A stretch of 64,000 bases of DNA from an uncultured Chloroflexia bacterium (GCA_963807065.1 CAWDZQ010000002.1:177260-241259); one strand, 5' to 3'. Positions 33,833 through 63,814 are shown, numbered from the stretch's first letter. Notes: generated from the sequence alone by a model not told the origin. Program-made: numbers and translations.

Positions 33833-35201
<1,369 letters not shown>

Positions 35202-38537: not shown

Positions 38538-39492
38538 GATAGCAACCCCTCACGATTCCTTCCCTTGAGCGGCCACAACTTCTTCCGGTTTCCGTCACCC
38601 ACATCCCATCGTGTAGGAAGTAGAAGATACCCAGCGCGCATACGCTGGTCATGATGAACACCAGCACGCCGACCGAGGAGGCCGCTCCGATGTGACCCTG
38701 GCTGCTAGCGAATTTCATGTACATCAGAATGTTGTTGGTTTGAATCGAGCTCAACGGGGAACCTCTGCCATCGGTCAAAAGGAACGGGATGTCAAACATC
38801 TGCATGCCGCCCACCAACGATGTCACAAAGACAAATATGAGGATAGGCTTCAATAACGGCAAGGTGATATGCCTGAACATTTGCCAGTCGCTTCCGCCAT
38901 CGACCATGGCGGCTTCATATAAGTGAACTGGTATGGACGTCATGCCTGCCATGAGAATGATTGCCGTCTGGCCGAACCACATCCACCATTGGATGAATAT
39001 CACCAAACCGCGCGTGATCCAGACACTCTCCAGAAACCGCATGGCTTCAGTCAAGAATCCCAGCTTCACCATGAGCTGGTTAGCTGGGCCATAGTAATCA
39101 AACAGTGCGTGAAACAATGCCGCTACGGCCGCAGGCACCAGCAGATTCGGCAAGAAGAACAACGCACGCCATGTCCCGACGGCCTTGATCTTCAACCGGA
39201 CACTGGTGAACAGAACCGACAACAGCATGGCGATGCCGATCTGAGGGATGAAATTCAGCAACCAGATCAACCAGGTGTTCCCCACCGCCCTCACGAAGAC
39301 GATATCGGCGAACAGCCGTTTGAAGTTTGCCAAGCCGGTAAATTTGCTCGTACTCGACATCAAGGTTGTGTTGGTGAAGCTAAGAGCCAGGGTGTTGTAA
39401 ACCGGGTAAAGGCCAAAGATGAGAAAGCCGATGACGAATGGCGCAAGAAACATATAACCGTAGTAATTGCTCCAAGACTTCGCTCTATTCAT
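38534..39492 (-). CDS. CUT1-family sugar ABC permease (MalF/LacF-like) with a probable frame problem at the extreme C-terminus
   Basis: Has the EAA loop (LYEAAMVDGGSDWQMFRHITLP). As drawn, ORF 38389..39525 runs 149 nt into the next gene. A shift near 38600-38620 gives a tail ending in TGA that overlaps the next ATG (ATGA at 38534-38537). The start is uncertain (39492, 39516 or 39525). Confidence 0.75.
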
Positions 39493-39611
39493 CTCGCCCT
39501 CGAGTTTCTCCGTCATCGAAAACAAGTCGCCCGATCAGCCAGTTTGAACGATCGGGGTGGGTCAGTGTATTCTTGGGAATACACTGGCCCACCCTCCCTT
39601 TCAGATTGCGG

Positions 39612-41045
39612 CTACTGTACAGGCGGGGCAGGAATGGTCAGATCGGGAAATTCGTTCCGAACTGCGTCCAGCCACGTAGACCACATCTCTGCTTCGGTCG
39701 TCGTTCCGCTAAGATACGCGGCCAGCGGGTCGTTTAGGGCACGCTGAATGGCGTCGTCAGAGCCGGTCAGCAACGCGCCATTTACACTCGGTGCGGCCTG
39801 GGCGAAGGCTCCATATGAGTTCTCCCCACCGAGGAAGTCGGACAGTGTGGAATTGTCGAAGCTGCTCGTAATCTTGTCGACTACCACCTGGCTGGAGACG
39901 AAATCTCCAGCCGCCTGAGCCTGGTCGTCGGGCGTGGTCGGATCGATGGCCTTCAGGTATTCATTGGTGTAAACGCCCGTTGCCCAATTGGTCAGGTTCT
40001 GTTCGTCGAGGGCGACGAACCTGACGAATTCCGTCGCCAGTTCACTATTCGGGCTACCCTTCAGGACGCCGACCCATGTGCCACCCCACTGGTAGGAGAG
40101 CGGACCGTTGACCATGGCCCAGTCACCGCCGGTGCCCGCCCCGCCAGACGCCGGGACGGAGTTGGGGCTCAAGACATACGGAAGGCCCCAGGTCGGGAGG
40201 AAGTAGCTGAAGACCTTCTTGGGGGTGCCATTGGCATCCACCAGCGTGTCATTCATACCGGAAAACCAGCCTTCAGTCCACTGCGTCGCTCCAGATTCGT
40301 AGCCCATGTCGCGCATCAGTTTGGCGAAATGGACGTACTCCACGATCTTAGGATCAATCACCAGTGTATCGTCGACTACCCAGGGCTGAGCGCGATTGGA
40401 GAGGAAGGGTGTAAACAACTCGGCACCAGTTCCAACCATGAAGTAATCGCCAGTGCCGCAGGCCTTAATCTTGGCGGCGGTGTCAAGGAACTTGGTCATG
40501 TCAGCGACCATGGCCTGCACCGCAACCGGATCATCGGTGCCGAGGCATTCTTTCGCGATGCTCCGGCGATAGAAGAAGGCTCCCGGAGTGGCCTGGTAAG
40601 AATAGGCCCTTGTCTCGCCGTTGAAGGTACCGACCTGGACCACGTTTTGGTAGGTCTTGAGGGTTTTGGTCAGAGGCAGAAGCGAATTCAAGTTGGCCAA
40701 CAGGTCGGACTCAACCCACTCTTTCACGAAAGCGGCTTCAAGCGCAACCACATCCGGAGAATTGGCGGTTCCAGCGGCCGCTTTCACTTTGGTTTGATAT
40801 TCACCGTTGGTCATAGGGATCAAGGTGTAGTTGACGGTCACCCCAGGGTGGACACCTTCAAAAGCAATCGCCATCGTCCTCAGTTCGGCGGTGAACGACC
40901 ACACGTTCAGGGTGCCAGTTAGTTCGGCAGGAGTGGGTGTATCCGCAGCCGCCGGTGCTTGGGTTGCTGGGGCACCACCGCAGGCGACCAAGAGCATACC
41001 TGTGACCATCATGAAGCTAAGGGCGGATACTGCAGACTTGCGCAT
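39612..41045 (-). CDS. CUT1-family extracellular solute-binding lipoprotein (oligosaccharide-type)
   Basis: The 477-aa ORF has a lipoprotein signal (MLLVACGG) and family-1 SBP-like sequence. It is the first gene of the transporter operon. Confidence 0.88.
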   Translation of the reverse strand: MRKSAVSALSFMMVTGMLLVACGGAPATQAPAAADTPTPAELTGTLNVWSFTAELRTMAIAFEGVHPGVTVNYTLIPMTNGEYQTKVKAAAGTANSPDVVALEAAFVKEWVESDLLANLNSLLPLTKTLKTYQNVVQVGTFNGETRAYSYQATPGAFFYRRSIAKECLGTDDPVAVQAMVADMTKFLDTAAKIKACGTGDYFMVGTGAELFTPFLSNRAQPWVVDDTLVIDPKIVEYVHFAKLMRDMGYESGATQWTEGWFSGMNDTLVDANGTPKKVFSYFLPTWGLPYVLSPNSVPASGGAGTGGDWAMVNGPLSYQWGGTWVGVLKGSPNSELATEFVRFVALDEQNLTNWATGVYTNEYLKAIDPTTPDDQAQAAGDFVSSQVVVDKITSSFDNSTLSDFLGGENSYGAFAQAAPSVNGALLTGSDDAIQRALNDPLAAYLSGTTTEAEMWSTWLDAVRNEFPDLTIPAPPVQ

Positions 41046-48498: not shown

Positions 48499-50139
48499 AT
48501 GCCAGACTTCGACACGATCGTCATAGGCTCCGGGGCGGGTGGTATGACGGCTGGGATCGCCCTGGCGCGCTCGGGCCAGCGGGTGCTGGTTTGCGAGCAG
48601 CACGAAGTGGCAGGAGGGTGGCTGCACTCCTTCACTTTGGATGGCCACCGCTTCAACACTGGCGTGCACTACATCGGTGAGCTTGGTCCTGGTGAGATGC
48701 TGCGCCGGATCTACGAGGGGCTCGGACTTTCGAACGACCTGGCGTTTATGGAGCTGAACCCTGATGGATACGACCACATCCTGGTAGGAGATCAGCGCCT
48801 TGACATCCCGAAAGGAAAGGACGCCTATCTGGCGCGCTTGAAAGATTCGTTCCCTCATGAAGCGAAGGGAATTGAGCGCCTGTTTGGCACCACAACCGAT
48901 GTCTTCTGGGCGCTGAAGAGGATGGTGGACGAAGACTGGCTCGCTTTGTTGGCGCGGCCGCGGGTGCTGCCCTGGTTCGCACGCTCTGGCGGGGTGTTGA
49001 TCGACCACTACATCGGCGACCGCACGTTGCGTGCATTGCTCAAGGGACAGGCGGGGGCCCATGGGATGGCTCCGAACTTGGTGTCATCGGCGCTGCATGC
49101 CGCCATCATTCACCACTACATTGAAGGTGCCTATCATCCACTTGGCGGCGGGATGGCCATCGCTCGCGCCGGCGTTCGGGCCCTCAAGCGGGCTGGTGGG
49201 GAAATCCGTCTGCAGGCACCTGTGAGTCGTGTCCTATTGGACGGAAGGCAAGCAGTTGGGGTCGAATTGGCGACGGGTGAGCGCCTGTCCTCAGCCAGTG
49301 TGATCAGCAACGCAGATCCTCACGGGACCTTTATTAATCTGATCGGTCGCCACCATCTCAGCCGTCACCTATGCCGCAAGCTGGATCGGGTTGGCTACTC
49401 GACGTCGTGCCTGAGCCTGTACTTGGTCGTAGATTGTGATCTCGAAGCGATGGGATTGGATTCGGGTAACTACTACATTCACAGTCATGATGATGTTGAC
49501 GGGATCTTCGGACGAGCAGCGACCAATCGGGCGCTGACCGAGCCTCCGGAACTCGTCTTCATGACGGTTACCAGCATGAAGGATCCGAGCAAGTATCGTC
49601 CGGGACAACACCAAATCGAGGTCTTCTGCTTCGCCGACTATGATCCGTTTGCCCGCTGGGAGAACCAGCCTTCCGGTGATCGTGATACAGAGTATCAGCA
49701 GCTGAAGTCGTCGATCAGCCAGCGGATGATCGAGTTCGTCGATCGACGGTTCTCTGGCATCAAGCATGCCATCATCTTCCAGGCGCTTGGCACCCCGTTA
49801 ACCAACCGCTACTATGTACGGGCGCACTTGGGCAACATCTACGGGATCGATAAGGGGATCTGGCAGGCGGGGCCGCTCGGCTTCCGGACCCGGACAGAGT
49901 TCAAGAACTTGTACTTGTGCGGTGCCAGTACGATGGCGCATGGTGTGGCCTACGCCAGCAATTCAGGGCTGACGGCGGCGTCCAAGATCCTTGGCTGTCG
50001 GCCCGATGACCTTCTCACCGGCACCGGGCCCGAACTGGCCATCTTCCAGTGCGAGGACCCAACGACTTGGCCAGCCAGATACCGACGAGAGCTGCCAGTG
50101 GAGGGCGAACGAGTCCACTCCTTAGGGTCGGCAGCCTAG
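48499..50139 (+). CDS. FAD/NAD(P)-dependent oxidoreductase of the phytoene-desaturase (CrtI-like) family
   Basis: Has an N-terminal dinucleotide fold (DTIVIGSGAGGMTAGIALARSG) and a 546-aa CrtI-like architecture. GGAGGAGGG lies upstream of the ATG. Confidence 0.85.
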   Translation: MPDFDTIVIGSGAGGMTAGIALARSGQRVLVCEQHEVAGGWLHSFTLDGHRFNTGVHYIGELGPGEMLRRIYEGLGLSNDLAFMELNPDGYDHILVGDQRLDIPKGKDAYLARLKDSFPHEAKGIERLFGTTTDVFWALKRMVDEDWLALLARPRVLPWFARSGGVLIDHYIGDRTLRALLKGQAGAHGMAPNLVSSALHAAIIHHYIEGAYHPLGGGMAIARAGVRALKRAGGEIRLQAPVSRVLLDGRQAVGVELATGERLSSASVISNADPHGTFINLIGRHHLSRHLCRKLDRVGYSTSCLSLYLVVDCDLEAMGLDSGNYYIHSHDDVDGIFGRAATNRALTEPPELVFMTVTSMKDPSKYRPGQHQIEVFCFADYDPFARWENQPSGDRDTEYQQLKSSISQRMIEFVDRRFSGIKHAIIFQALGTPLTNRYYVRAHLGNIYGIDKGIWQAGPLGFRTRTEFKNLYLCGASTMAHGVAYASNSGLTAASKILGCRPDDLLTGTGPELAIFQCEDPTTWPARYRRELPVEGERVHSLGSAA

Positions 50140-51050: not shown

Positions 51051-51545
51051 TTACTCCCCGATGATCTGCAACCTCACCTTGCGCTCCCGACCTCGGGTCT
51101 GGTCGAAATCGGCGAAGTAGATCCTGCCGAATTCCCCCAGCACCATGGCACCGCCTTCCAATGGCACCAACACCGAACGGCCGAGGATTACCGACCGGAG
51201 ATGCGCGTCGGTGTTAAGCGACCAGGAAGCCAGCTCGTCTCGCCCCAGCGCGGCCTCAATGTGCTTTGGCCCCGGGTGAAGATACTGATTCTGGGTCAAG
51301 CAGGTGGGTATGATCTTCCCCAATGCTCCGACCAGGTCCTGCATCAGGAATTCCGTCCCCCAGTAGTCGGTGTCGTCCGAAGCCTCCTGGAGCAACACAC
51401 TGCAGGTGGTGTGCTGCGAGAAGACCATCAGGATTCCATCACGGATTCCGGAGTCGGACACGGCTGCTTCGACTCGCTCGGTCACATCGTCGAAGGTCGG
51501 CCTCGGCTCGGATTGGATGGTGAACGTGTGATGATAGATGGTCAT
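51051..51545 (-). CDS. YjbQ/UPF0047-family protein
   Basis: Has FSQHTTCSVLLQE and DAHLRSVILG motifs typical of YjbQ-like proteins. The start is at 51545. Confidence 0.78.
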   Translation of the reverse strand: MTIYHHTFTIQSEPRPTFDDVTERVEAAVSDSGIRDGILMVFSQHTTCSVLLQEASDDTDYWGTEFLMQDLVGALGKIIPTCLTQNQYLHPGPKHIEAALGRDELASWSLNTDAHLRSVILGRSVLVPLEGGAMVLGEFGRIYFADFDQTRGRERKVRLQIIGE

Positions 51546-51559
51546 AGCAAAGTCACCTT

Positions 51560-52267
51560 TTATCTCCGGGTTTGGTCCCACGCCAGTCGGACGTTCGAGA
51601 TCATCTCTTCCAGCATCGAAAACGGATCGGGGGCCTTCAGGACACCGCTCGTTGACCCCGTCGCCTCGGCCCCATCGGCGATGATGTCGAAGACATCCTT
51701 ACCATTGCTGATCCCCGCGGCATGAAGGACTCGCGTCCCGGGGCTGATCCCGTGCACCAGCTGGTTGATGGCCGGGATGCTGAGCCGATCCTCCGCCGAC
51801 GTCGATCCCGCGCCGATCAGATCGGGCGACTCGGCGATAATGATGTTGGGGGACAACCGGCTCACCCTCTCGACTTCGCGCAAGTCCCCTGCACAGACGA
51901 GGGTGGCCAAACCGACCTCGTCCGCCCGCAAAATGGTCTCCTCCAGCACGTCCGGCAGCAGCGGCTTCTCCGCATGGTTGAGCATCGTTCCCTTGGCGCC
52001 GGCAGCCTTCAGGGCCTCCGGCAGCACGGAGCCGTTGCCCCTTCCAATGCGGATCGGGTCCATGTGTTGGGCGAAGATGAGCAGATGAGTGGTCTCCTTA
52101 ACCAGACTGGGTATATCGACCGCCTGGGGCGTCAGGATGATTCTGACGTCGTACTTCGCGCTCAGGGCATCGGCGTGCCGCGCCAAGGCCACCAGGTCAT
52201 CCCCAAAGATGTAGGCTTTGGGCCCAAGCTCGAAGAAAGGTGCCTCAAGAGCAAAATCCGAAATCAT
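51560..52267 (-). CDS. triose-phosphate-isomerase-family (archaeal-size, TIM-like) isomerase
   Basis: The 235-aa ORF has GTMLNHAEK (an NHSE-like catalytic His/Glu region) and an AESPDLIG segment. The substrate is unknown. Confidence 0.72.
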   Translation of the reverse strand: MISDFALEAPFFELGPKAYIFGDDLVALARHADALSAKYDVRIILTPQAVDIPSLVKETTHLLIFAQHMDPIRIGRGNGSVLPEALKAAGAKGTMLNHAEKPLLPDVLEETILRADEVGLATLVCAGDLREVERVSRLSPNIIIAESPDLIGAGSTSAEDRLSIPAINQLVHGISPGTRVLHAAGISNGKDVFDIIADGAEATGSTSGVLKAPDPFSMLEEMISNVRLAWDQTRR

Positions 52268-52357
52268 GCTTGCGCCCTTTCTTGGCTGGATTCTTCCCGG
52301 CCTGTTTCAAATCTCGGGGACAAGCGTTTCGGCCAATAGCCTGTCTTGAGATCTCGA

Positions 52358-53314
52358 CTAAGAGGCATCGGTCGGGGGAACAATGTCGAAGTCCCAAACC
52401 GGTGCGCCCAATGTCACCAAAGCGCTGCGAACCGTCTCGATTTGATCCGGCGGACACAGCGCGATCATGCAGCCGCCCCCTCCGGCGCCCATTTGTTTTG
52501 CCCCCCAGGCGCCGGTTTGTCTTGCCGTCTGGCAGAACAGTTCAAGCCGATCGGTCGATGTGCCCATGGCCAGTTCGAGCGCCTGTTGTCGGTCCATGAT
52601 GGCGCCGAGGCTTCCGAGATCGTCGTCAAGAATGGCGGCCCGGCCCTCCTCTACCAGCGCTACGACCTGATCCAGGGGACCCATCAGGCTGGGATCGCCC
52701 TCGGCTATTCGGCGCCGAAGCCACTTTTGCAGCGCCTGCGTGTCGTGCGACTCCTGCGTATCGGCCACCAGCACCGGCAGCGACGGGACAGGCAGGCGCT
52801 CTACCCCGGCTTCATCGCCGGTTTGGATGTAGGTTACCCCGCCGTATGCGATGGCATACTGATCCATGCGGCCGCATTCGACGTCCAGGTCATAGCGTTC
52901 AATTTGAAACGACAACTCTGCGATTTCGTCGGTGGTGTAGGTGACCCCGCTTAGCTGCTGCAACGCACGAATGCTTGCAATGCACAGAGCCGTTGAAGAT
53001 GACAATCCGGCGCTGACGGGGATCTCGGAATGAATGGTCAGGTCGAACCCATGCTCCAAACGATCCGCCAAGCGTGCGTAGACCGCCTTGACGTACTTGA
53101 GGGGAGAATCGAGTGCAACGGGGTCGCCGAGGTGAAATGATTCCTGGAAACCAATATCGGCTCCTGTCAAAACCACCAAATCGTCGTCGCGCTTTTCCAC
53201 CTCGACCGCCAGGATGGCAGACACAGCGGCGGCAATGGCCGGCTTCTCCAGGAGATCAGCGTTATCGCCCAGCAGACATATTCGGCCGGGCGCCTTCCCG
53301 ATCACAGACGTCAT
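52358..53314 (-). CDS. GHMP-family sugar kinase
   Basis: Has APGRICLLGDNADL (motif I), PVSAGLSSSTAL (motif II) and GAGGGGCM (motif III). Confidence 0.85.
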   Translation of the reverse strand: MTSVIGKAPGRICLLGDNADLLEKPAIAAAVSAILAVEVEKRDDDLVVLTGADIGFQESFHLGDPVALDSPLKYVKAVYARLADRLEHGFDLTIHSEIPVSAGLSSSTALCIASIRALQQLSGVTYTTDEIAELSFQIERYDLDVECGRMDQYAIAYGGVTYIQTGDEAGVERLPVPSLPVLVADTQESHDTQALQKWLRRRIAEGDPSLMGPLDQVVALVEEGRAAILDDDLGSLGAIMDRQQALELAMGTSTDRLELFCQTARQTGAWGAKQMGAGGGGCMIALCPPDQIETVRSALVTLGAPVWDFDIVPPTDAS

Positions 53315-53343
53315 CGATGCGCACCTCTTCGCTATGGGCAGGG

Positions 53344-53382
53344 CTCTGTGAGCCGGCAGATAAGAACTGCCGGCTCACAGAG
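53344..53382 (-). other. perfect 16-bp intercistronic hairpin
   Basis: ctctgtgagccggcag-ataagaa-ctgccggctcacagag lies between the binding-protein stop (53420) and the GHMP kinase start (53314). There is no U tract. Confidence 0.5.
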
Positions 53383-53419
53383 GCTAATCTTACGATCTTG
53401 CAGCAAACGCTCGACCGCC

Positions 53420-54532
53420 CTACTGGACGATCTGGCTCCATCCGTCGGCGATGTTCGTGGCCGCGTCCGTCAGCTTCGAGAAATCCTTGGGGAAGGTGAC
53501 GTACTGGTCGTAGATCGACTTCGCCGGAAACATCCCAGCCAAATCAGCCGGAAGCTCGATGTCGCGGATCGGATGCGTGAAGCCTTGGGCATAGGCCAGC
53601 TGGCCCTCGTCCGAGTATTCAAGTTCGAGCAACAGCTTGGCGGCATTCGGGTGCGGTGCGGCAACGGTGGCGAACTGGATGTACAACCCGGCCACCGTGC
53701 CATCACTGGGGATGACCAGCTGCAGCGGCATGCCCAGATCCTTGGCCTTACTCAGGCAGTCGAAATCCCAGAAGAGGGCAATGGGCACCTCACCTGCCTG
53801 GATGTTGGACGTGCTGGGGGAAACTGCTCGCATCTGGCCGGCGGCATACATCTGTGAGAAGTAGTCGAGGCCGGGCTGGACATTGGTCTCGTCGCCGCCG
53901 TTACCGAAGGCGGCACCCAGGACGACATAGTTGGCCGTTCCGGATTCCCGCGGATCCTTCATGGAAACCATGTCCTTATACATCGGATCCAGCAGGTCGG
54001 CCCAGCTCTGTGGGACCACGGGCACCAGATCCGTGTTGACGCAGAACCCGATGGCGCCCCAGTAGGCGGCTGACCACAGACCGTTCGGATCCTTGGCATA
54101 ATCAGGGATCTCGGACCAATGCGAGTTCTGGTAGGGTTGAGATAGGCCTTCGACCACGACCTGGTTGGCGAAGTTGATGCCCAGGTCGGTGATATCGGCC
54201 ACGCCGGAGGTCTTCTCAGCTTCCAGTGCGGAGATGATCTCGCCACTGCCCATGTCGGTGTCCAGATGCTGGATACCGTACTTGCTCTCATACACGGACC
54301 ACATGCCGCCGTAGTTCACCCAGTCATCGGGGAGACCGTAGCTGACGATCTCGCCTTCGGCCTTGGCTGCGTCGACAAGCCCCGCCATCATGTCAGCGGG
54401 CGCCTCGGTCGGCTGCATCGCCGGTGCTTCCGTGGGCTGCGCCTGCGTCGTGGGCGGTGCCGTTTGGCAGGCCGGCAACAACACCATCGAGGCTACGACC
54501 AAGAGCGCGAGGATTTGCATGCTCTTCTTCAT
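53420..54532 (-). CDS. ABC transporter substrate-binding lipoprotein (PotD/Fe3+-type, PBP2 fold)
   Basis: The start at 54532 has AAGGAGGG upstream. Has a lipoprotein signal (VLLPAC) and a Thr/Pro/Ala linker. Confidence 0.85.
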   Translation of the reverse strand: MKKSMQILALLVVASMVLLPACQTAPPTTQAQPTEAPAMQPTEAPADMMAGLVDAAKAEGEIVSYGLPDDWVNYGGMWSVYESKYGIQHLDTDMGSGEIISALEAEKTSGVADITDLGINFANQVVVEGLSQPYQNSHWSEIPDYAKDPNGLWSAAYWGAIGFCVNTDLVPVVPQSWADLLDPMYKDMVSMKDPRESGTANYVVLGAAFGNGGDETNVQPGLDYFSQMYAAGQMRAVSPSTSNIQAGEVPIALFWDFDCLSKAKDLGMPLQLVIPSDGTVAGLYIQFATVAAPHPNAAKLLLELEYSDEGQLAYAQGFTHPIRDIELPADLAGMFPAKSIYDQYVTFPKDFSKLTDAATNIADGWSQIVQ

Positions 54533-54655
54533 TGTTCCCTCCTTGAGGGCAGTTAGGATGTTCACATGCACGGATTGAGGTCACTCTTTCATGAGTTTGA
54601 AATGCTGCCTGTCTCACCTCCTCGTTTCAAGTGCCTGCCATCGGCCACAATGGTT

Positions 54656-55736
54656 TCAGGACTCCTGCTCGCGCATCACGCGGCAAGCACTGGCCTGGAA
54701 ACAGACCAGCACGTCTTCGCCGCGCGCAAATCGACTGCGTTCGTTGGTGTTTACATCGGCCACCAGAGGCAGGCCGTGACAGGTCAGCGACAGCCGGATG
54801 ACTGGGCCCAAAAGGGTCACGCTCTCCAGAGTCGCAGGCAAGATGTTGTCGGCTTGCACGGGTTCTCCGGCTTGGGCGATCCGAATCGCTTCCGGGCGGA
54901 CAAACACGTTGACCCGTTCTCCTTCACCGAATTCGGGGCTCAGGTCCCTGCCCACCACCAGCTCGACGTCACCAGCCCGAACCCGACCAGCTCGCCCATC
55001 ATCCACAACCGCTTCGAATCTTGTCGTGGTCCCGATAAAAGTGGCCACAAACTGTGTCTTCGGTGAGGTGTAGATCTCGATCGGTGTGCCGATCTGCTCG
55101 ATTTCGGCCCTGCGCATCACCACCACCCGATCGGAGATCGAGAGCGCTTCCTCCTGGTCGTGGGTGACGTAGACCGTGGTAATTCCCAGCTGAGATTGGA
55201 TCCGCCGAATCTCCTGTCGCAAACTCACCCGTACAACCGCATCCAGGGCGCTCAGCGGTTCGTCCAGCAGGAGCACTTTGGGCTCGATCGCCAACGCCCT
55301 GGCCAAGGCCACTCGCTGCTGTTGGCCTCCACTGAGCTCCGCAGGGTATTTCTGGCTGGCGTCCCCCAGCCCGACCAGATCCAGCAGCTCCACGACCCGT
55401 TGGTTGATCTGGCTGGCGGACTGCTTAGACACTCTTAGACCGAAGGCCACATTGCCCCAGGCAGTCATGTTGGGGAATAGGGCATACGACTGGAAGACCA
55501 TTCCCATGCCTCTGTGGTGTGGCGGCACCTCGGTGATGTCCTCCCCATCGAGACGGACGGTCCCTCGGTTGGGAGTTCTCGAAACCGGCGATGATCCGAA
55601 GCGTCGTTGTCTTGCCGCACCCCGACGGCCCAAGCAGGGATATGAACTCGCCTTTGTCGACGACGAGGTTGAAATCGCTGACGGCATCCACCTCGCCATA
55701 AGTCTTGACCAGGCCATCCAGCTCCAGGTAACTCAT
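54656..55736 (-). pseudogene. ABC transporter ATP-binding protein (PotA/MalK-like), split by one frameshift
   Basis: The Walker A part (MSYLELDGL...[16 protein letters not shown]) is in the tail of ORF 55425..56066 from ATG 55736, which overlaps the permease stop as ATGA. The rest ([11 protein letters not shown]..., LSGGQQQRVALARAL, LLLDEPLSALD) is in ORF 54656..55717. The join is at about 55575. Confidence 0.85.
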
Positions 55737-56593
55737 ACCGTCCCTCCAACCGACGCCTGCTTTGACGCGAGCTCGCCTTTGACGTCTCGCCCGGCGCCAC
55801 GCCGTGTCCCCCAAGTGGCGACCCACAAGATAACCAGCGAAGTCACCCACGCGACGGTGAAGCTGATCACCGAGTACGCCGAGGCAATCCTGCCGTCCCG
55901 GCGCGTGTAGTACACAAGCTGCATCGGGAATGTCTTGAATCTGGCGCCCACAAGCAGGGTGGCCAAGGTGAACTCTCCGAAAACTGTGGCGAAGACGAGC
56001 AATCCGCCGCTCAGAATCCCAGGCATGATATTGGGAAGAATGACCTGTACCAGGGTCCTCGGCCATGATGCGCCGAGACTCTGGGCGGCTTCCGTCAGCC
56101 TGCGGACGTCAACTGCCTCCAGGCTGCTGGCCACAGGCCGATACATGAACGGAAGCGTGAAGATGACATAGGCCAGGACCAGCATAGGCGGCGTGCGCGC
56201 AAGCTGCAGGGGCCCTTGCCCGTACAGCTTGATCAGGCCCAGGGCCAACACCACCGCCGGGATCGCAAAAGGCAGGGTGGAGATCAGGTTCAACAGGGGC
56301 AGCGCCCGCGGCAGTCGGAGGTGAACCCAATAGGCAGTGGGCACAATCAGGACCACGCTGGTGAGGACCGTGGCCGCGGAGAGCGTGATGGAATGGGTAA
56401 AAACGATCAGGAACCATCGATCCTGGAACGCCGTCCGGTACCAATCAAGCGTCAACCCCTCAGGCAGGATGGACCGATCCCATCTGACGGCTACCGAGAA
56501 GATGTAGGTGGCCAAAATGGGCAAGAACATGTAGCCCAGGAAGAGGAGGATGCTGACCGTCCCAGCCGGGTTCCTGTTCTTCACTGACGCCAC
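55733..56593 (-). CDS. ABC transporter permease (PotC-like)
   Basis: The 286-aa ORF has 6 TM helices and an EAA-like loop ([22 protein letters not shown]). Confidence 0.85.
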
Positions 56594-57456
56594 CTTCGGG
56601 CACGACGTGCCGCGAGTTGGTACAAGGTGATCGTGAGACCCATCAAAGTGAGAGTCAGCACACCCATGGCATCGCCGGCTCCGGGATCACGCAGGACCTC
56701 GCCCGTCAAGAGGGAGCCGAGCTGCAATGTCACCAGGTTGAAACGCGACCCGGTGAGCGTATAGGCTGTTGCATACGCGCCGAACGCATTCGCAAACAGC
56801 AGGAGCAAGTTGGCCAGGATCGCCGGGGCAAGAATGGGCAAGCCGATGTAACGCCAGTAGGCGCGGGCGTTGCCGCCCAGACTCAGGGCAGCTTCGCGCC
56901 ACTCGTCCTTCAATCCGGCGATGGCCGGAAGAACCAGAAGAACCATCAGCGGAAGTTGAAAATACGTGTAGGCGAGGACCAATCCCCAAAACGAATAGAC
57001 ACTGAAGTCGGGGTAGATCTTCCAGCCAAAGTACTGTGTCAAGAACAAGGTCAGGACCCCGTTGCTTCCGAGTACGACAATGAAGGCAAAGGCGAGCGGA
57101 GCACCCGAAAAATTGGAGGTTACGTCACACAGAGTTATCACCAATTCCTTGATCCGCCCGCTTCTGATCCGGAAGGTGAAGTAGCCCACGGCCGTCCCAA
57201 GCAGGGTGCCCAAGAGCGCCGTGATCCCAGATAGAAGAATGCTGTTTCGGAAGGATTGTGTGTAGAGGGGTGCCCTCATCGCGAGATAGTTGTCGAGGGT
57301 CAACAATCCCTCTCTCGACCTGAAGCTGCCCTCGAGCATGAACGAGAGGGGCAGGACCATGATCGCCAAAGTGATGACGAGGAAGGGAATCAAAGGCAGC
57401 CAATTCCACCAACCCCCATAAGAAGACCGTACCTTGGTCCTGAAATTGGCTAGCAC
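56581..57456 (-). CDS. ABC transporter permease (PotB-like)
   Basis: The 291-aa ORF has an EAA-like loop (WREAALSLGGNARAYWRYIGLP). The GTG start has GGAGG 7 nt upstream. Confidence 0.85.
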   Translation of the reverse strand: MLANFRTKVRSSYGGWWNWLPLIPFLVITLAIMVLPLSFMLEGSFRSREGLLTLDNYLAMRAPLYTQSFRNSILLSGITALLGTLLGTAVGYFTFRIRSGRIKELVITLCDVTSNFSGAPLAFAFIVVLGSNGVLTLFLTQYFGWKIYPDFSVYSFWGLVLAYTYFQLPLMVLLVLPAIAGLKDEWREAALSLGGNARAYWRYIGLPILAPAILANLLLLFANAFGAYATAYTLTGSRFNLVTLQLGSLLTGEVLRDPGAGDAMGVLTLTLMGLTITLYQLAARRARRWRQ

Positions 57457-57471
57457 TGCCTGCCCTCCGGG

Positions 57472-58944
57472 TCAGCCAGAGATTTCGACGAGCGGATGGT
57501 CATGATGAACTCTGAGAGTCGATGCCGCTTCATCCCAGATCCAGCCCGAGTTCGACTCGCCGTCCATCGCCCCCAGTTCCATCCCTCCACTCGACACGTG
57601 CTGTGGGGCAAATGTCAGCTTGAGCACTTCCGAAGCATTGGGGTCAAAGGTCTGATACCGGACCGTGTGCGGCGCATATGTGATAGAAGTCACAATCGAA
57701 GTCGTTCCCAATAGATGGTCGGCCGAGCCGGGCGCCAGATCCGGCAGTGCGGCCATGCCATCCAAAAAGTGGGGCACAAAGTCGAAATAGCCGTCGGTGA
57801 ACCAGCATTGGTTGTAGTAGTCGGGTCGATCGACCCCGACATGAACGTAGCCTTCGTCGGTCACCATGTAGCTCGCCCAGCCGAAGTTGCGACGAGCCAG
57901 ATCGGCGTATCTGGCCTCCCCCGTGAGCGCAGCATGTTGAGCGCAGATGGACGCCAAGCGCGCCGTGTGACTTCCCATCACGTGGAAGCAGAACGTCTGC
58001 TCGTGGATTGGCACCGACTTGAAGAAGGGATCGCTCCCAAAGGTCGTCAACACCCATTCAATGATCGATTTAACATGGGCGGGCGCGTCGGGATCGCAGT
58101 CGGGGTGTTGAAGGAGATATCGGGCAGTCGCCAAGGCACTGTACTGTTCTCTGTTTTTGTTATCGGGGTCCAACCGAATGTCTTCGAAATACCCTTTCCA
58201 GCAACCGTTCTGCATGGGAAACGTCATGATCCAGCGCCAGGCGGTTTCACGTGCCGCTGCCAGGAGATCGGGTTGGCCGACGCCCAAATCGAGCAACTCG
58301 TCGAAAAGGCGAACAGCAGCAACGGTGTGGCTCGAGTAGAGTTCGACCGGCGTGCCATCCCGCGCATCAACCCGGAACGGCCAGGGCGAGTGTTCGTCAT
58401 CGCCTTCCTGGCATTTGTCCGCCAGCACACGCGCGCAGCTCTCCGCCTGGCGGAGGTACTTCTCCTCACCGGTGAGTTTGAAGAAGCGCAGAAACCCCAG
58501 AGCGGCCTGGGCGACTTTGTCCGGCTCGGTAACATAGTGGCCGTCAGCCCTTGCCCCAAAATAGACGCCGTGCATGGGTTCGGCAGAGGCGTAAGGAACT
58601 CCGGGCCAAGCAAAATGCTCGGGGGTATGGTAGGAAATCAGACGGTCCAGCATGGACCGGACGGGCTCGATGAACCAGGTTTCGCCTGTGTAGGACTGAT
58701 AACGAACGAGCGTTTCGACGGCCATAGCGAACTTGCCGGCCGGATTGTCGGGCCAGTCGGTGGGGCGCAGCGGATCGGTCCAAAAGCATGAATACGCCAA
58801 GTACCAGGGCAGACCCGTCCGTTCATCGACCGGACAGCGGCGCAGAAAATCCATCGCCAGCCAGACCACGGAATCCGCATCCGCCTGGGCCAGCAGGCCC
58901 TCTGACGCATCAAGCTTCAGCTCGCGCCCGTTGATTTCGATCAC
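57472..58944 (-). CDS. conserved-looking hypothetical protein (490 aa), possibly an (alpha/alpha)6-barrel glycosidase/lyase-like fold
   Basis: A long intact ORF with normal composition and Trp/Tyr/Asp-rich repeated helical segments. I recognise no signature motif, and the fold suggestion is a guess. Confidence 0.7.
   Translation of the reverse strand: MIEINGRELKLDASEGLLAQADADSVVWLAMDFLRRCPVDERTGLPWYLAYSCFWTDPLRPTDWPDNPAGKFAMAVETLVRYQSYTGETWFIEPVRSMLDRLISYHTPEHFAWPGVPYASAEPMHGVYFGARADGHYVTEPDKVAQAALGFLRFFKLTGEEKYLRQAESCARVLADKCQEGDDEHSPWPFRVDARDGTPVELYSSHTVAAVRLFDELLDLGVGQPDLLAAARETAWRWIMTFPMQNGCWKGYFEDIRLDPDNKNREQYSALATARYLLQHPDCDPDAPAHVKSIIEWVLTTFGSDPFFKSVPIHEQTFCFHVMGSHTARLASICAQHAALTGEARYADLARRNFGWASYMVTDEGYVHVGVDRPDYYNQCWFTDGYFDFVPHFLDGMAALPDLAPGSADHLLGTTSIVTSITYAPHTVRYQTFDPNASEVLKLTFAPQHVSSGGMELGAMDGESNSGWIWDEAASTLRVHHDHPLVEISG
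57679..57694. promoter_or_regulatory. perfect TGTGA-N6-TCACA core inside a coding region
   Basis: The sequence is atatGTGAtagaagTCACAAtc, within the 3' part of the 490-aa ORF and about 225 nt upstream of the first permease gene. Its flanks fit the extended consensus less well. Confidence 0.25.
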
Positions 58945-59049
58945 AAGGTCCTACCGCATCTCCCCAAGGGGCGGATGTCTTCCACGCGCCCCAAGCGAAC
59001 CTGTGTCTGCCTGCCCAGAGGGGTCTGCAGGCGCCTGACCCCGAAGAAC

Positions 59050-60444
59050 TTAGATCGCAACAACCTCCACGCCGAGAAGCTCGCCGACCTTTTCCACTTG
59101 CTCGCTCAGGTGACCGTAGGCCAAGGCCATGTGGTGAGGGGACCCTGCCAGAAGCCAGCGATTGCAGAAGTCTTCGATGGAGCCGTTCTTGTAGCGGAAG
59201 AGCATTTGCGGCGCGGCGACCGGGCGCGGCGTCATGGGCAGGGACTCGCCCTCGCCGACGATCATGCGCCATTCCCCATCGCCCAGCGGGATCAGGGAAA
59301 GGATCGTGACGTCACCCGGTGCATAGGCGAATTCGAGACCGGCCCCCCGGCCGTTGACCCCTTCATAGTAGATGCTGGGCTTGATCTTCACCTGCTTTGG
59401 ATCCGCGGCCATGGCTGGATTGCCATGCCCATCGTGAGAGAGGATGATGGCATCCTCGTCGAAGTCGATCACATAGTTCTCCAGGAAGGTGACCTCTCCG
59501 GCCAACTCTTGAAGCACCATCATGGCTGACAGCGTGGTGACATCCGCCTCCGTCGCCACGGGAATGTGTTCGGCACACAGAATCCCCGTACCGTAGCTGG
59601 GGATAATCCCCACTCGCGGATCGGTCAGCCAGATTTGGTCGAACGTGGCCAGGCCGTCGAACTTGCCCTCGCGTGCGATGTCAAGCATGGCGAGGGTCAG
59701 GCGGGCCGACCTATCGAAGAGTTCCTTCGGCATCTCGCTCGCGTCGTAGGCTTCGGATTGAGAAGTCATAAAGTCCTTGACTCGCCCGTCGTCCATCGCT
59801 TGGGCCGCCACGGCCACCTTCTCCGGCTCGATGGGCCAGCAGACCGGTCCGATAACGTCCCGCAAGCTCAAGCCATCGACCATCAAATCGGTCATGCCTT
59901 CAAATGCGTGCCCAATGACGCCGATGCGCATCTTCTCAAGCCTGCGAATGGCTCCGGCAGCGGCCGCGTACTGGCCGATCTGTGCCAGGCCAGCCGGGTC
60001 TTGAATGTGGCTCGTTAGCAGTTGGAACGGCCGGCCGGACCGAATAAGGGCGCTGGTGAGTTCCGGCAATCCGGCCATGCCCGAGTTTTCCATAATGACA
60101 TCGAAATCGGCTTCTTCGGGCAGGCGGCGGATCTGCTGTGTGTTCCACACCAGGATCGGCGCGTTCACCCTCAGCAAAGTGCGCATCGGGATGATGCCCT
60201 TTTGGTAGGCCAGCTCGATGGCCACCACCAGGTCCACGTTTTCGGCGTTGAAGACCTGCGTGGCTCGATCCGCATCCGGCTCATATTCAACGAAGCCCGG
60301 ATTGATGACCTCGCCGTAGGGCTTCAAAATGTCGGCAATCCGGTCGGTCGCCTCGGCCATCTTGGGGCGCATGTGGCCGGTCTTGTTGTAGTCGTCCTCG
60401 AGCAACGCGGTCACAAACAGACCGAGCTTGGGCTTCACAGTCAT
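59050..60444 (-). CDS. L-arabinose/L-fucose-isomerase-family sugar isomerase
   Basis: The start at 60444 has AGGAGG 6 nt upstream. The 464-aa ORF has AraA/FucI-like organisation. The longer ORF to 60957 is an out-of-frame overlap with the kinase gene. Confidence 0.78.
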   Translation of the reverse strand: MTVKPKLGLFVTALLEDDYNKTGHMRPKMAEATDRIADILKPYGEVINPGFVEYEPDADRATQVFNAENVDLVVAIELAYQKGIIPMRTLLRVNAPILVWNTQQIRRLPEEADFDVIMENSGMAGLPELTSALIRSGRPFQLLTSHIQDPAGLAQIGQYAAAAGAIRRLEKMRIGVIGHAFEGMTDLMVDGLSLRDVIGPVCWPIEPEKVAVAAQAMDDGRVKDFMTSQSEAYDASEMPKELFDRSARLTLAMLDIAREGKFDGLATFDQIWLTDPRVGIIPSYGTGILCAEHIPVATEADVTTLSAMMVLQELAGEVTFLENYVIDFDEDAIILSHDGHGNPAMAADPKQVKIKPSIYYEGVNGRGAGLEFAYAPGDVTILSLIPLGDGEWRMIVGEGESLPMTPRPVAAPQMLFRYKNGSIEDFCNRWLLAGSPHHMALAYGHLSEQVEKVGELLGVEVVAI

Positions 60445-60481
60445 GGTTGGCCTCCTAGGCTGGACATATGGGTACGCGCCA

Positions 60482-62017
60482 TCACGTAGGCTTCTTTTCG
60501 ATTGGTTCACGCAAGACGGGTACGATCGCATCAAAGAGCCGCACGTAGCGGTTGAACGCGGCGTCGTACACATCACGGTTGTCGGGATTGGGATGGATTC
60601 GTTCGCCGAGGGACACCATCGCATCCGCCGCCTCGTGCAGATTCTCGAAGGCCCCCACCGCCATGCCCGCCAGCATGACGTCCCCCAGAAGGGCCGTGTC
60701 TTCCACCTGCAGGGAAGCCACCGGCAGCTGGCATACGTCGGATTTGATCTGACGCCAGAGCGGGCTTCGAGCGCCCCCGCCGGTGGATCTGATTTCTTGC
60801 AGCTGAACTCCGGAGCCGCGCACCAGGTCGATGTTCCGGCGCAGCATGAAGGCCACAGCCTCCAGAACCGCTCGGGCGAAATGTCCCTTCTCATGTGCCA
60901 AAGTGAAACCAGCAAAGACGCCGCGGGCAGCTGGCTCGTACTCCGGGCTGAAGGCACCGGTGAGATGGGGCAGCATCACCAGGCCATCGCATCCAGGGGC
61001 GATCCTATCCGCCATGGCCGTTATCAGATCGTAGGCATCTTGGTTGATTTCCCGGGCGCGGGCCATCTCAGATTGACAGAACACGTCCCGGAACCATTTG
61101 AGCGCCATGCCGCCGGTCTCACACACCGGGTCGAAGAGGTACTTCCCCGGAAGCGCATGCAGGTACACCGGGATTCGACCCTCGGGATCGAGATCGGGCC
61201 GATCCACCGTCACGTGCAGCGTGAGGGCGCCGCCCGTGCTCTCGGAAATGATCTCCGGGCTGAGATTGCCCGCCCCGACAGCGCCCGCGATCTGATCCAT
61301 GCCGGCCAGCACCACAGGCAGGCCGGGGCTGAGACCCATGGCCTCAGCCGCCTCACGCGTCAACGGTCCTGCCACTTCCCCGATGTGTTTGAGGTCGGGA
61401 AGCTGGTCCGGCGAAAGGCCCACGGCTTCCAGGGCGCGGTCCCACCAGGTGTGCGTGTTGATATCCAGCAGCAGCGAAGTACAGGCGACGCCACCATCGG
61501 TGACAAACGCACCCGTCATACGCTGGATGATGAAGTTCTGCACCAGGAGAAATCGATGCGTCCGCCGGAAAACATCCGGTTCATGATCCCGAATCCAAGC
61601 GATTTTGCAGGCTGTCCAAGTGGGATCGATCGTCGGGATGCCGGTATAGGCGTAGGCTTCCTCCCCGAGTATCCGATCGAGGGTCCGTGCCTCTTCCAAC
61701 GCTCGATGATCCAGCCACACCAACGCCGGGTACAGCGGCTTTCCCGCCTGGTCAACGGAGAGCGTGGTCTCGCCCTGGCTGGAGACCCCCACGGCGAGGA
61801 TGGAGTCGGGCGCAGTGCCGGCTTCCGCCATGGCCTCGTTCACCACGCGACAGGCGGAGGTCCAATAATGCTCCGGATCGAGCTCGACGCGATCTGGCGC
61901 CGGCGTCGCCAGGCGGTAGTCCTGGATCCCCATGCCAAGGCACTTTCCGGCCAGGTCGAAGATCGCCGCCTTGACCGACGTCGTGCCTATATCGAGCCCG
62001 AGAAGAAAACTCATCAC
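60482..62017 (-). CDS. FGGY-family carbohydrate kinase
   Basis: Has LGLDIGTTSVKAAIF, AGMDQIAGAVGAG and TGGGARSPLWRQIKSDV motifs. Confidence 0.88.
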   Translation of the reverse strand: MMSFLLGLDIGTTSVKAAIFDLAGKCLGMGIQDYRLATPAPDRVELDPEHYWTSACRVVNEAMAEAGTAPDSILAVGVSSQGETTLSVDQAGKPLYPALVWLDHRALEEARTLDRILGEEAYAYTGIPTIDPTWTACKIAWIRDHEPDVFRRTHRFLLVQNFIIQRMTGAFVTDGGVACTSLLLDINTHTWWDRALEAVGLSPDQLPDLKHIGEVAGPLTREAAEAMGLSPGLPVVLAGMDQIAGAVGAGNLSPEIISESTGGALTLHVTVDRPDLDPEGRIPVYLHALPGKYLFDPVCETGGMALKWFRDVFCQSEMARAREINQDAYDLITAMADRIAPGCDGLVMLPHLTGAFSPEYEPAARGVFAGFTLAHEKGHFARAVLEAVAFMLRRNIDLVRGSGVQLQEIRSTGGGARSPLWRQIKSDVCQLPVASLQVEDTALLGDVMLAGMAVGAFENLHEAADAMVSLGERIHPNPDNRDVYDAAFNRYVRLFDAIVPVLREPIEKKPT

Positions 62018-62021
62018 CTGC

Positions 62022-62840
62022 TCAGGTCAACTTGTGGGACTTGGCGGCCTTCTGCGGCGAAACACCCCCCTTGACCACGTCCTTGAGTGCCTCCAACAGC
62101 GCCTGAGGGCGGCGGGCCTGGACTACATTGCGCCCGAAGACCACGCCCCTTGCCCCCGCCTCGACTGCCGCCTGGGCCAGCTTGAGCGCATCCAACTCGG
62201 AAGGCTTCTTGAGCGCCCCCAGGGCGAAAATGGGGATCGGCGTCGCTTCGGTGATCTTGTGGAACTGCTTGCCGGTGTAGAAAGTCTTTACCAGATCGGC
62301 GCCCAACTCGGCCGCCATCCGGCAGCCGATGAGAACCTGTTCCTGAAGCTCTTCGGGCTGTGCGAAGTCGCCCCCGATGGGATACACCTCGCAGATCAGA
62401 GGCACGCCGGCGATCTCCTTCTGCTGCACGTAGCGGGAAAAGAGATCGACGTTAACCGAATCCTCGAGCTGGTCAGGGGCACGCAGCGTCAGACTGGCAA
62501 CCACCACGTCAGCTCCCAGGTGCAGGGCGTCATCGACCGAGAGCAGAGGCACGGAATGAGAATGGCCATAGTCCCATTCGGCCATATAGTTGGTCGCCCA
62601 GTTGAGCCGGGTGATCATCGCTGGGGCGTCGCGCCGGGCAAAAAACTGCCGACAGTGACGAATCATGCCCGCGCCCAACAGCACGCCATCGGCGGCCGAG
62701 AGCTTTTGGATCACCTTGGGCAGATCAATCAGGCCCGGCAGGGGCCCGAAATAGAGACCGTGATCGATGGCAACGATCACAGCATTCGGCGAGCCAGAAA
62801 AGAGACGACCTAAGCGGATCTCTTCTCCAACCATAGCCAT
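62022..62840 (-). CDS. class I aldolase of the DhnA/FbaB/LsrF family
   Basis: The 272-aa TIM-barrel-like ORF has the family-typical LVKTFYTG (Schiff-base Lys region) and FGRNV tail motifs. AAGGAGAG lies upstream of the ATG. Confidence 0.82.
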   Translation of the reverse strand: MAMVGEEIRLGRLFSGSPNAVIVAIDHGLYFGPLPGLIDLPKVIQKLSAADGVLLGAGMIRHCRQFFARRDAPAMITRLNWATNYMAEWDYGHSHSVPLLSVDDALHLGADVVVASLTLRAPDQLEDSVNVDLFSRYVQQKEIAGVPLICEVYPIGGDFAQPEELQEQVLIGCRMAAELGADLVKTFYTGKQFHKITEATPIPIFALGALKKPSELDALKLAQAAVEAGARGVVFGRNVVQARRPQALLEALKDVVKGGVSPQKAAKSHKLT

Positions 62841-63036
62841 GGCCTACTCTCCTTGGGATCGGCCGGGGACATCGGCGGCGATTAGAGCGTTTATCGGCGA
62901 TCACCTGGCCCCATCATACTGGCAATTCTTCGGATAGTCAATCGTTTCCCTTCGGTTTATCACCGCTTTCTTGTTGCTTTTTGTTGGATTTGGGGTATGA
63001 TCAGAACAGTTTCGGGCGTTTTCAGGGTAACAGGGG

Positions 63037-63814
63037 ATGAATACCCATCAACGGCGCGACCTGATTGCACAGAAGGTTCTCGAACAGGGCCGGATCCATG
63101 TTTCCGACTTGGTCCAAGAGTTCGGAATGACCGACACGTCGATCAGGAACGACCTCACAATCTTGGAAGAGAGGGGGTTGCTGCGGCGAATCCACGGCGG
63201 TGCCGTATCGACCAATCGATCCATCCAACTAGCTGCCTACGACACACGGCTAGGACTGCAGCGAGAGCCGAAAGTCCACATCGCTGCCGCGGCTGCCGAC
63301 CGCCTGCATTCAGCCGACATCGCCTTGCTCGACTCCGGAACATCCATCCAGTACCTCGCCCGCCAAATCCCAGCTCGAGGGGCGCCCTCCGGCCGGTTGC
63401 GAATCGTCACCAATTCCATCCCGGTGCTGGAGGAGATCGGGGGCTGGGCCTCCCACAATCTGCTCATGCTGGGCGGGATCTTCTTGCCCGAGCATCAAGC
63501 TACGGTGGGTCCGGAAACGTTGCGCGGTCTGCAGCAATTTAACGCCACCTGCGCATTCCTCGGCTGCGACGGGCTGACGCTCGAAGGCGGTATCACATCG
63601 GCTCATCCCCTGGTCGCCGAAGTCGGCCGAGTGATGGCCGAGAGAGCCGAAGAGGTGATTGTCTTGGCCGACAGCAGCAAACTTGGGCAAGCCGGCTTTG
63701 TCCCGATTATCCCCTTGGGGAAGATCAACGTGCTTATCACCGATGCCGGCGCGCCGAGTTCCCATCGTAGACGGGCTTCGGCGACAGGGCGTCGAAGTGC
63801 TCCTGGTGGCCTAG
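63037..63814 (+). CDS. DeoR-family transcriptional regulator with a frame problem about 20 codons before the natural stop
   Basis: This ORF is not in the supplied ORF track because the frame runs off the window end. It has MNTHQRRDLIAQKVLEQGRIHVSDLVQEFGMTDTSIRNDLTILEERGLLRRIHGG (HTH) and a DeoR C-terminal sugar-phosphate-binding-like domain. After ...LITDAGAP, a +1 shift near 63751-63759 gives VPIVDGLRRQGVEVLLVA-TAG (63812-63814), a typical DeoR ending. Confidence 0.8.

Follow-up and report, generated by a model that had tools for sequence, protein, structure and literature searches.

Bacterial pathways for L-fucose, L-rhamnose and D-arabinose (FucI/FucK/FucA and RhaA/RhaB/RhaD) follow one logic, in which an isomerase, an FGGY kinase and an aldolase convert the sugar to dihydroxyacetone phosphate (DHAP) and an aldehyde. 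Parts of this logic recur in other systems: the LacABCD tagatose-6-phosphate pathway uses an aldolase of the DeoC/LacD family (PF01791), the lsr system (LsrK, LsrG, LsrF, LsrR and LsrACDB) places an FGGY kinase next to a DhnA-family enzyme with a repressor nearby, and erythritol/threitol catabolism (Brucella EryH/TpiA2) relies on a single locus that encodes a triosephosphate isomerase (TIM) paralogue together with an FGGY kinase and a regulator of the DeoR type. Here we describe a locus from an uncultured Chloroflexia bacterium that shares components with each of these systems. It lies at positions 51051–63814 of a 64,000-nucleotide stretch of DNA (hereafter the window) and consists of 11 minus-strand genes (51051–62840) and a divergent gene for a DeoR-family regulator (Table 1). 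Its most informative part is the gene for a 490-amino-acid (aa) protein, which is probably the representative of a new family of carbohydrate-active enzymes, set apart by Pfam, NCBIfam and PDB sequence comparison.

The isomerase of the locus belongs to the same AraA/FucI superfamily as those of the fucose and rhamnose pathways, but the locus aldolase is of the archaeal class I (Schiff-base) type whereas theirs is a class II metal enzyme. The locus also adds a TIM paralogue, YjbQ, a GHMP kinase and a predicted (α/α)6 enzyme, relies on an importer of the AfuA/PhnS/PotD class and lacks an aldehyde reductase or dehydrogenase. Relative to LacABCD, its kinases are of the FGGY and GHMP families rather than PfkB, its isomerase would act on a free sugar rather than a sugar phosphate, and its aldolase resembles MJ0400, FbaB and LsrF more than it does LacD. 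Two kinase steps and cleavage to two triose phosphates, as in LacABCD, would explain the presence of two kinases and a TIM-like gene, and AraA enzymes convert D-galactose to D-tagatose; a scheme resembling the tagatose-bisphosphate route, in which the two kinases, the TIM paralogue and the LacD-family aldolase all have a place, would be an attractive analogy. The lsr system differs in having a SorC rather than a DeoR regulator and in lacking the isomerase and the glycan-type enzyme. The erythritol loci differ in that the TIM paralogue described here is of archaeal type, with G-P-K for N-x-K, and in that our locus encodes an AraA-type isomerase and a class I aldolase but no polyol dehydrogenases. 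The operon logic is thus of a known kind, and what is new or unusual is the combination of components, the pairing of TIM paralogue and YjbQ, the importer class and the large uncharacterised enzyme family. We found no characterised counterpart of the cluster in the literature searched, no equivalog-level match and no solved structure of the 490-aa family. The proposal that this is a carbohydrate catabolic locus fitting no named pathway, made in an earlier annotation of this DNA (hereafter the original prediction), is upheld by these comparisons, by enzyme scores that all fall below those of characterised equivalogs and by co-conservation of the genes in about 55 genomes.

On balance, we favour the reading that the locus is an operon, under the control of DeoR, for the breakdown of a small glycoside or oligosaccharide. 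This reading draws on the gene content and its co-conservation, on the catalytic residues of the isomerase, the aldolase and the TIM paralogue, and on the fold class of the 490-aa protein and the glycan-locus context of its secreted relatives. A lipoprotein binding protein and an ABC importer of the AfuA/PhnS/PotD class would bring in a small glycoside that is probably charged, from which the cytoplasmic (α/α)6-barrel enzyme would release an aldose. The AraA-family metal-dependent isomerase would turn the aldose into a ketose, the FGGY kinase would phosphorylate the ketose, and the archaeal-type class I aldolase would split the ketose phosphate into DHAP and an aldehyde. Triose-level products would be handled by YjbQ and the TIM paralogue specific to this cluster, while the substrate of the GHMP kinase would be a second released moiety or a cleavage product. 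We infer the order of these steps, the hydrolase or lyase activity of the barrel enzyme, the position at which the FGGY kinase acts, what the GHMP kinase, TIM paralogue and YjbQ do, and the substrate. Weak hints of an L-arabino/D-galacto configuration come from the AraA-type isomerase, from a GalK-like kinase in a sister arrangement of the cluster and from an L-arabinonate-dehydratase-like partner in Chitinophagales.

Gene content was determined from a listing of open reading frames (ORFs) together with Pfam and NCBIfam scans, which recovered every gene type named in the original prediction; that prediction had counted thirteen genes on one strand, whereas we count the 11 and the divergent DeoR gene given above. 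Intergenic gaps along the minus-strand run, which speak for an operon, range from −13 (an overlap) to 123 nucleotides; the YjbQ gene starts 14 nucleotides past the end of the TIM paralogue gene, and for the isomerase the public annotation has the same start, 60444, as ours.

The grouping of these genes is far beyond chance. We compared 80 genomic loci (designated by L numbers) with the window proteins and took counts from the 37 Chloroflexi (Anaerolineales) loci of at least 17 kb. The same gene set occurs in about 55 Anaerolineales genomes, in two gene orders, and the cultured Pelolinea submarina MO-CFX1 (L025; NZ_AP018437.1, about 3,468,255–3,489,718) has the whole cluster. The importer and the FGGY kinase are encoded by all 37 loci, the AraA-type isomerase and DeoR by 36, the class I aldolase by 34, YjbQ, always adjoining the TIM paralogue, by 32, and the TIM paralogue by 31. 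A GHMP kinase of one type or the other is found in 35 loci: the 318-aa type of the window in 10 and a 483-aa GalK-like type in 25. The two types never co-occur, and this mutual exclusivity suggests that they do the same job; the replacement of the 318-aa kinase by a GalK-like enzyme in sister loci argues for a role as a sugar kinase. Since the gene set is kept through two gene orders, it is not an accidental juxtaposition of unrelated units, and the several unrelated transcription units that the original prediction had named as a ground for refutation are not what we find. In the second gene order, 22 of the 37 loci hold, in the same operon, a metallo-β-lactamase (MBL) protein that resembles RNase Z and cyclic-nucleotide phosphodiesterases, along with a further importer (for example, at L004 2934–3683 and L089 11463–15124). 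This second importer comprises another PhnS-like binding protein and two permeases without an ATPase of its own, and presumably shares the single ATPase of the cluster. The window copy has neither the MBL gene nor the second importer. A link to the phosphate regulon through PHO4 and PhoU neighbours was considered and rejected, because such neighbours occur in only one or two of the 37 loci.

The 490-aa protein, listed as unknown in the original prediction, indeed has no Pfam or NCBIfam match, and a profile search of the PDB gave no significant sequence match. Its AlphaFold2 model (predicted local distance difference test score 87.9; predicted template-modelling score 0.91) shows an (α/α)6 barrel and, at the C terminus, a β-sandwich, a predicted architecture typical of glycan-active enzymes. 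Foldseek searches of the PDB with this model returned only generic (α/α)6 matches, with template-modelling (TM) scores of at most 0.58 and 9–16% identity. The best of them are epimerases and isomerases of the AGE family (cellobiose 2-epimerase, N-acylglucosamine 2-epimerase and YihS; E ~1e-7, TM score 0.52–0.58, 9–15% identity), followed by members of glycoside hydrolase (GH) families GH127, GH76 and GH47. The predicted barrel is shared with AGE, GH127 and GH76 enzymes, and GH127-like proteins also combine it with a C-terminal β-sandwich; the 490-aa protein differs from all of these in lacking sequence similarity in Pfam and the PDB, and from GH127 in that the Cys/Zn motif is not conserved. 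Sixteen residues are invariant throughout the family (D142, K143, Y203, E254, D255, E315, Q316, S325, H326, R329, D384, Y386, D388, H392, H410 and Y423), and in the model the invariant Asp, Glu and His lie at helix starts, as expected for a putative active site at the barrel centre. None of the Cys residues is invariant in the family as a whole or kept outside Anaerolineales, which argues against GH127-type chemistry; with no GH127 match in Pfam either, we rejected Cys/Zn catalysis of that kind.

Homologues of the 490-aa protein are numerous: at least 945 are present in a large protein collection, and an exhaustive profile search retrieved 1,485 representative clusters (50% identity), of which 338 have E values below 1e-30. 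The 120 homologues listed are 53–100% identical to the window protein, come mostly from metagenome-assembled genomes (MAGs) of Anaerolineales and carry no functional name, being called 'hypothetical protein' where they are named at all. Many family members are 600–1,900 aa long, with the domain fused to immunoglobulin (Ig)-like, fn3, Laminin_G_3, DUF4082 or type IX secretion system (T9SS) sorting modules, and all of the at least 30 Bacteroidota and Pirellulales homologues examined have signal peptides. A tblastn search of 72,556 plasmids with the 490-aa protein gave no match.

The genomic surroundings of these relatives are those of sugar utilization. Pirellulales MAGs (L059 6418–14078; L060, L066 and L078) encode up to five tandem paralogues with signal peptides, 27–41% identical to the 490-aa protein, adjoining genes for an SSF transporter, an AraC regulator, an AraA-like isomerase and an FGGY kinase (37–38% identical); two Pirellulales loci also have the same aldolase type (41%) and DeoR. 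Bacteroidales MAGs carry two or three copies after SusC/SusD pairs, flanked by the aldolase (43–46%) and an FGGY kinase. A different block surrounds the secreted homologue in Chitinophagales and Sphingobacteriales (L062–L064, L067, L074–L076, L079 and L083), with a class III aminotransferase (HemL-like), GntR, SDR, an EamA transporter, an IlvD/EDD dehydratase closest to L-arabinonate dehydratase, an SMP-30 lactonase and a DHDPS-like protein; the block reads as an oxidative, non-phosphorylative sugar route, and the cultured Segetibacter aerophilus carries the enzyme in this context. The same aminotransferase cluster is present in L071 and L066. Beyond this block, a class III aminotransferase lies with the enzyme in one MAG labelled Bacteroides and in one Pirellulales locus, with none in the Anaerolineales cluster. 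These aminotransferases may point to an amino-sugar substrate or to transamination of a pathway aldehyde. Judged by gene neighbourhood, the enzyme appears tied to sugar catabolism in three phyla, through either of two classical routes. It is predicted to be extracellular or periplasmic where an outer membrane exists and cytoplasmic behind an ABC importer in Anaerolineales. This pattern of location and context is what would be expected of an enzyme that frees a monosaccharide from a glycoside or glycan.

The logic of isomerase, kinase and aldolase set out in the original prediction is backed by catalytic residues. The C-terminal AraA/FucI domain of the isomerase scores above the Pfam cut-off, and all four metal ligands of AraA (Escherichia coli E306, E333, H350 and H450) are identical in a phmmer alignment to 4F2D. 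The protein lies far below the AraA model NF002795 (63.7 bits; cut-off 622) and the SftI model (45 bits; cut-off 700), and among plasmids its only relatives are about 25% identical and reside on rhizobial and Deinococcus plasmids in unrelated contexts. The FGGY kinase is likewise below the XylB (343.6 bits; cut-off 380.25) and LsrK (256 bits; cut-off 528) models, with LsrK (2.2e-62) as its top PDB match and XylB at 3.2e-58. For the aldolase, every NCBIfam score is below its cut-off, including PRK07226, the best (167.7 bits; cut-off 241), and the LsrF model NF006081 (125.4 bits; cut-off 297); the best PDB matches are MJ0400 (1.5e-29) and LsrF (2e-24). Its Schiff-base Lys (in DLVKTFY) aligns with K203 of LsrF and K184 of MJ0400, and a Tyr (in EVYPIGG) aligns with Tyr146 of the Thermoproteus tenax aldolase, the catalytic Tyr of archaeal class I fructose-bisphosphate (FBP) aldolase and of ADH synthase/MJ0400, which LsrF does not have. 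Because both the Lys and the Tyr are kept, the protein is classed as a true archaeal-type class I aldolase (DhnA/FbaB/MJ0400) and not as an LsrF-type thiolase. The GHMP kinase falls just short of the mevalonate kinase model TIGR00549 (156.7 bits; cut-off 163.05), with weaker matches to galactokinase and HddA models; in the PDB, mevalonate kinases match at ~1e-32 and galactokinases and heptose kinases at ~1e-19.

The TIM paralogue scores 166.2 bits against NF003302, above the cut-off of 132, and its best PDB match is the TIM of Pyrococcus woesei (3.9e-37), with which the three catalytic residues (Lys, His and Glu) line up. In the N-x-K motif, Gly takes the place of Asn. The resulting FFE-x-G-P-K motif is kept in 39 of 42 orthologues (L003–L058, L088 and L089); the three exceptions (L045, L046 and L048) have FFETS(V/I)KN, and their loci contain two copies of YjbQ but no aldolase. 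The best 120 homologues are at least 58% identical, and two relatives at about 60% identity whose contigs were looked up both belong to the same cluster, beside YjbQ. Public annotation, where present, labels these proteins as plain triosephosphate isomerase; they look like a dedicated, cluster-specific isomerase and not a housekeeping TIM. YjbQ scores 84 bits against TIGR00149 (cut-off 67.75). The physiological function of the YjbQ/UPF0047 family is unknown (PMC3010111), and its tight and exclusive pairing with the modified TIM paralogue offers a concrete route to that function.

The importer had been predicted to be of the PotABCD/Fe3+ type. This holds for the broad SBP_bac_6 class of the binding protein and fails at the level of PotD, for which the score is 31.4 bits (cut-off 582); PhnS, at 67 bits (cut-off 395), is also a weak match. 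The N terminus of the binding protein (MKKSMQILALLVVASMVLLPAC) reads as a lipobox. Its closest PDB match is 5T1P (2.8e-61; ligand not named), and the closest relatives with named ligands are AfuA (sugar phosphate; 2e-19) and P5PA (pyridoxal phosphate (PLP); 1.5e-11), followed by a PhnS-like protein (aminoethylphosphonate; 1e-8), and by PotD/PotF (~1e-7) and iron binders, so that organophosphate binders are at least as close as polyamine or iron binders. Permease A has only weak PotB and PhnU matches in NCBIfam, and permease B reaches 94.9 bits against the PhnV model (cut-off 358). An importer of the AfuA/PhnS/PotD class suggests a charged substrate, possibly phosphorylated or aminated.

Several observations weigh against a simple glycoside pathway. 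The importer class is not the usual sugar type, its solved relatives binding organophosphates, polyamines or iron, and the MBL protein and second PhnS-like importer of the second gene order point to a phosphodiester substrate, beyond a simple glycoside model. The structural matches of the 490-aa protein are headed by epimerases and isomerases, not hydrolases. None of the enzymes reaches the cut-off of any characterised equivalog in NCBIfam, so their specificities are not assignable. The scheme gives YjbQ no chemical role and leaves the altered TIM motif unexplained, no aldehyde-disposal enzyme is encoded in the locus, and two genes are frameshifted in the window copy. The strongest rival is scavenging of an organophosphate or phosphodiester, such as a phosphoglycan or a teichoic-acid-like fragment, with the importer taking up a sugar phosphate or phosphodiester and the sugar then passing through isomerase, kinase and aldolase. 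The hexose phosphate, PLP and aminoethylphosphonate ligands of the binding protein's relatives, its PhnS-type NCBIfam matches and the MBL loci all speak for it. Two kinases are hard to justify for a substrate that is already phosphorylated, however, the window copy lacks the MBL gene and the second importer, PHO4 and PhoU neighbours are rare, and relatives in other phyla use SusC/SusD, SSF, MFS or EamA transporters. We consider this rival unlikely as a replacement for the glycoside pathway; it may be complementary to it.

Rather less probable still is that the 490-aa protein is an AGE-type epimerase or isomerase and that a free monosaccharide is catabolised through two successive isomerisations. 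The AGE and YihS fold matches and three invariant His with one invariant Arg would suit such an enzyme, but it has no AGE match at the sequence level in Pfam or the PDB, and AGE-family proteins are not known to have a C-terminal β-sandwich. Its homologues, moreover, are secreted, arrayed in up to five copies, located near SusC/SusD and fused to lectin-like, Ig-like and T9SS modules, and secreted, multi-copy, lectin-fused proteins fit depolymerases. The YihS-like fold, together with the anion-binding class of the importer and weak SftI scores of the isomerase (87 bits for the Pirellulales partner), could also be taken to indicate a variant sulfoglycolysis of the sulfo-EMP type, in which sulfoquinovose or its glycosides would yield DHAP and sulfolactaldehyde under a DeoR-type regulator; the sulfoquinovose regulator of E. 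coli is of the DeoR family and its aldolase is class I. We regard this as very improbable and rejected it, because the SftI scores are far under the cut-off and no sulfolactaldehyde reductase or dehydrogenase and no sulfonate exporter was found in the window or in the annotated Chloroflexi loci. The known sulfo-EMP2 aldolase, furthermore, is class II (PMC10665668), and arrays of secreted paralogues in glycan loci are ill-suited to a sulfolipid head group. The resemblance to autoinducer-2 (AI-2) processing raised in the original prediction, with FGGY kinase, LsrF-type enzyme and regulator as in lsr, finds an echo in the PDB matches to LsrK and LsrF and did not survive closer comparison: the aldolase keeps the Tyr that LsrF lacks, both proteins score well under the respective models, LsrG, LsrB, a CUT2 importer and a SorC-type LsrR are missing, and a glycan-type enzyme and an AraA isomerase have no role with AI-2. 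We give an lsr-like system hardly any credence. Catabolism of a small glycoside or oligosaccharide thus remains the reading that we prefer.

A broader proposal, which we put forward tentatively and with some doubt, is that the 490-aa protein founds a glycan-cleaving family spread over Chloroflexota, Bacteroidota and Planctomycetota and that the operon encodes an undescribed sugar pathway in which the class I aldolase, TIM paralogue and YjbQ act together. If true, it would give YjbQ/UPF0047 its first physiological context. In a speculative variant, an L-configured or otherwise unusual hexose would yield a non-standard triose that the GHMP kinase and the TIM paralogue return to glycolysis. Knowledge of the substrate of the (α/α)6 family could establish a new family of carbohydrate-active enzymes and bring to light a glycan that has been overlooked. 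Soils, sediments and digesters harbour many Anaerolineales, which are poorly characterised. Conservation of the pathway in dozens of their genomes suggests a common environmental substrate that current annotation misses, and the two cultured carriers of relatives, P. submarina MO-CFX1 and S. aerophilus, make the system testable.

The regulatory region has conserved features of its own. The promoter-like site upstream of the aldolase gene resembles the sigma-70 type, and its hexamers, a CCGAAG element beside the −35 hexamer and an AGGAG ribosome-binding site are kept in five orthologous intergenic regions (L006–L009 and L014). CCGAAG/CTTCGG repeats flank the −35 hexamer of the operon promoter and are conserved in the five related genomes; they are candidate DeoR operator sites. 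The divergent intergenic region (62841–63036) also contains a second conserved TATGAT-like element facing DeoR. An Rfam scan of 48–64 kb of the window found no element, and a terminator scan was uninformative (12 found; 9.3 expected).

Two genes of the locus are frameshifted in the window. The reading frame of the ATPase is broken near 55576, leaving the Walker A part and the remainder in different frames; once a base is deleted, the gene encodes a full-length protein of 359 aa, 89% identical to its intact homologue in L001, and DNA alignment reveals one surplus base relative to L006, L007 and L014. The DeoR frame is broken near 63759, where a one-base deletion gives a 258-aa DeoR-like protein ending at 63814, and again there is one surplus base relative to L007. 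Assembly indels are the likeliest cause, because the window contains split GH1 and GH3 genes outside the locus too, in what look like frameshifts; related MAGs that come from long-read projects of this kind have fragmented genes as well. True pseudogenisation is unlikely, as these are single-base insertions in otherwise conserved frames and at least two unrelated genes of the window are also split. This suggests a long-read assembly with residual indel errors, not a decaying genome.

Table 1. Positions of the genes and regulatory features of the locus and of genes of a second carbohydrate locus in the window.
Feature	Position	Strand	Support or remark
YjbQ/UPF0047 protein	51051–51545	−	PF01894 1.7e-26; last gene of operon
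Archaeal-type TIM paralogue	51560–52267	−	NF003302
GHMP-family small-molecule or sugar kinase, 318 aa, mevalonate-kinase-like	52358–53314	−	GHMP_kinases_N and GHMP_kinases_C
Lipoprotein solute-binding protein, SBP_bac_6 class (AfuA/PhnS/PotD/FbpA group)	53420–54532	−	SBP_bac_6 1.6e-24
ABC ATPase (ABC_tran and TOBE_2 type), frameshifted	54656–55736	−	
ABC permease B (PhnV/PotC-like)	55733–56593	−	BPD_transp_1
ABC permease A (PotB/PhnU-like)	56581–57456	−	BPD_transp_1
Uncharacterised 490-aa protein, candidate glycoside-cleaving enzyme	57472–58944	−	AlphaFold2 model, homologue context
AraA/FucI-family isomerase, 464 aa	59050–60444	−	Arabinose_Iso_C PF11762 1.7e-15
FGGY kinase	60482–62017	−	FGGY_N 1.3e-60, FGGY_C 6.7e-28
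DeoC/DhnA class I aldolase	62022–62840	−	PF01791 8.5e-19; first gene of operon
Promoter-like site TTGACT-17-TATGAT	62941–62913	−	Promoter scan; upstream of aldolase
Two CTTCGG-type direct repeats	62928–62940 and 62950–62962		Candidate DeoR operator
DeoR-family regulator, divergent, frameshifted	63037–63814	+	Frame followed by eye; homologues carry HTH_DeoR and DeoRC
FGGY kinase of second locus	27750–29240	−	
Xylose-isomerase-like TIM barrel of second locus	30166–31416	−	
GH3 of second locus, split	32386–33714 and 31395–32375	−	
GH1 of second locus, split	34689–35198 and 33836–34729	−	
GH94 of second locus	35205–37136	−	
CUT1-type binding protein of second locus	39615–41045	−	

Immediately past the downstream end of the cluster, a gene on the plus strand (48499–50136), opposite in orientation, encodes a flavin amine-oxidase or phytoene-desaturase-like oxidoreductase. 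Related loci do not keep it beside the cluster, to which it probably has no connection. The window also contains a second, ordinary carbohydrate locus on the minus strand (27750–41045).

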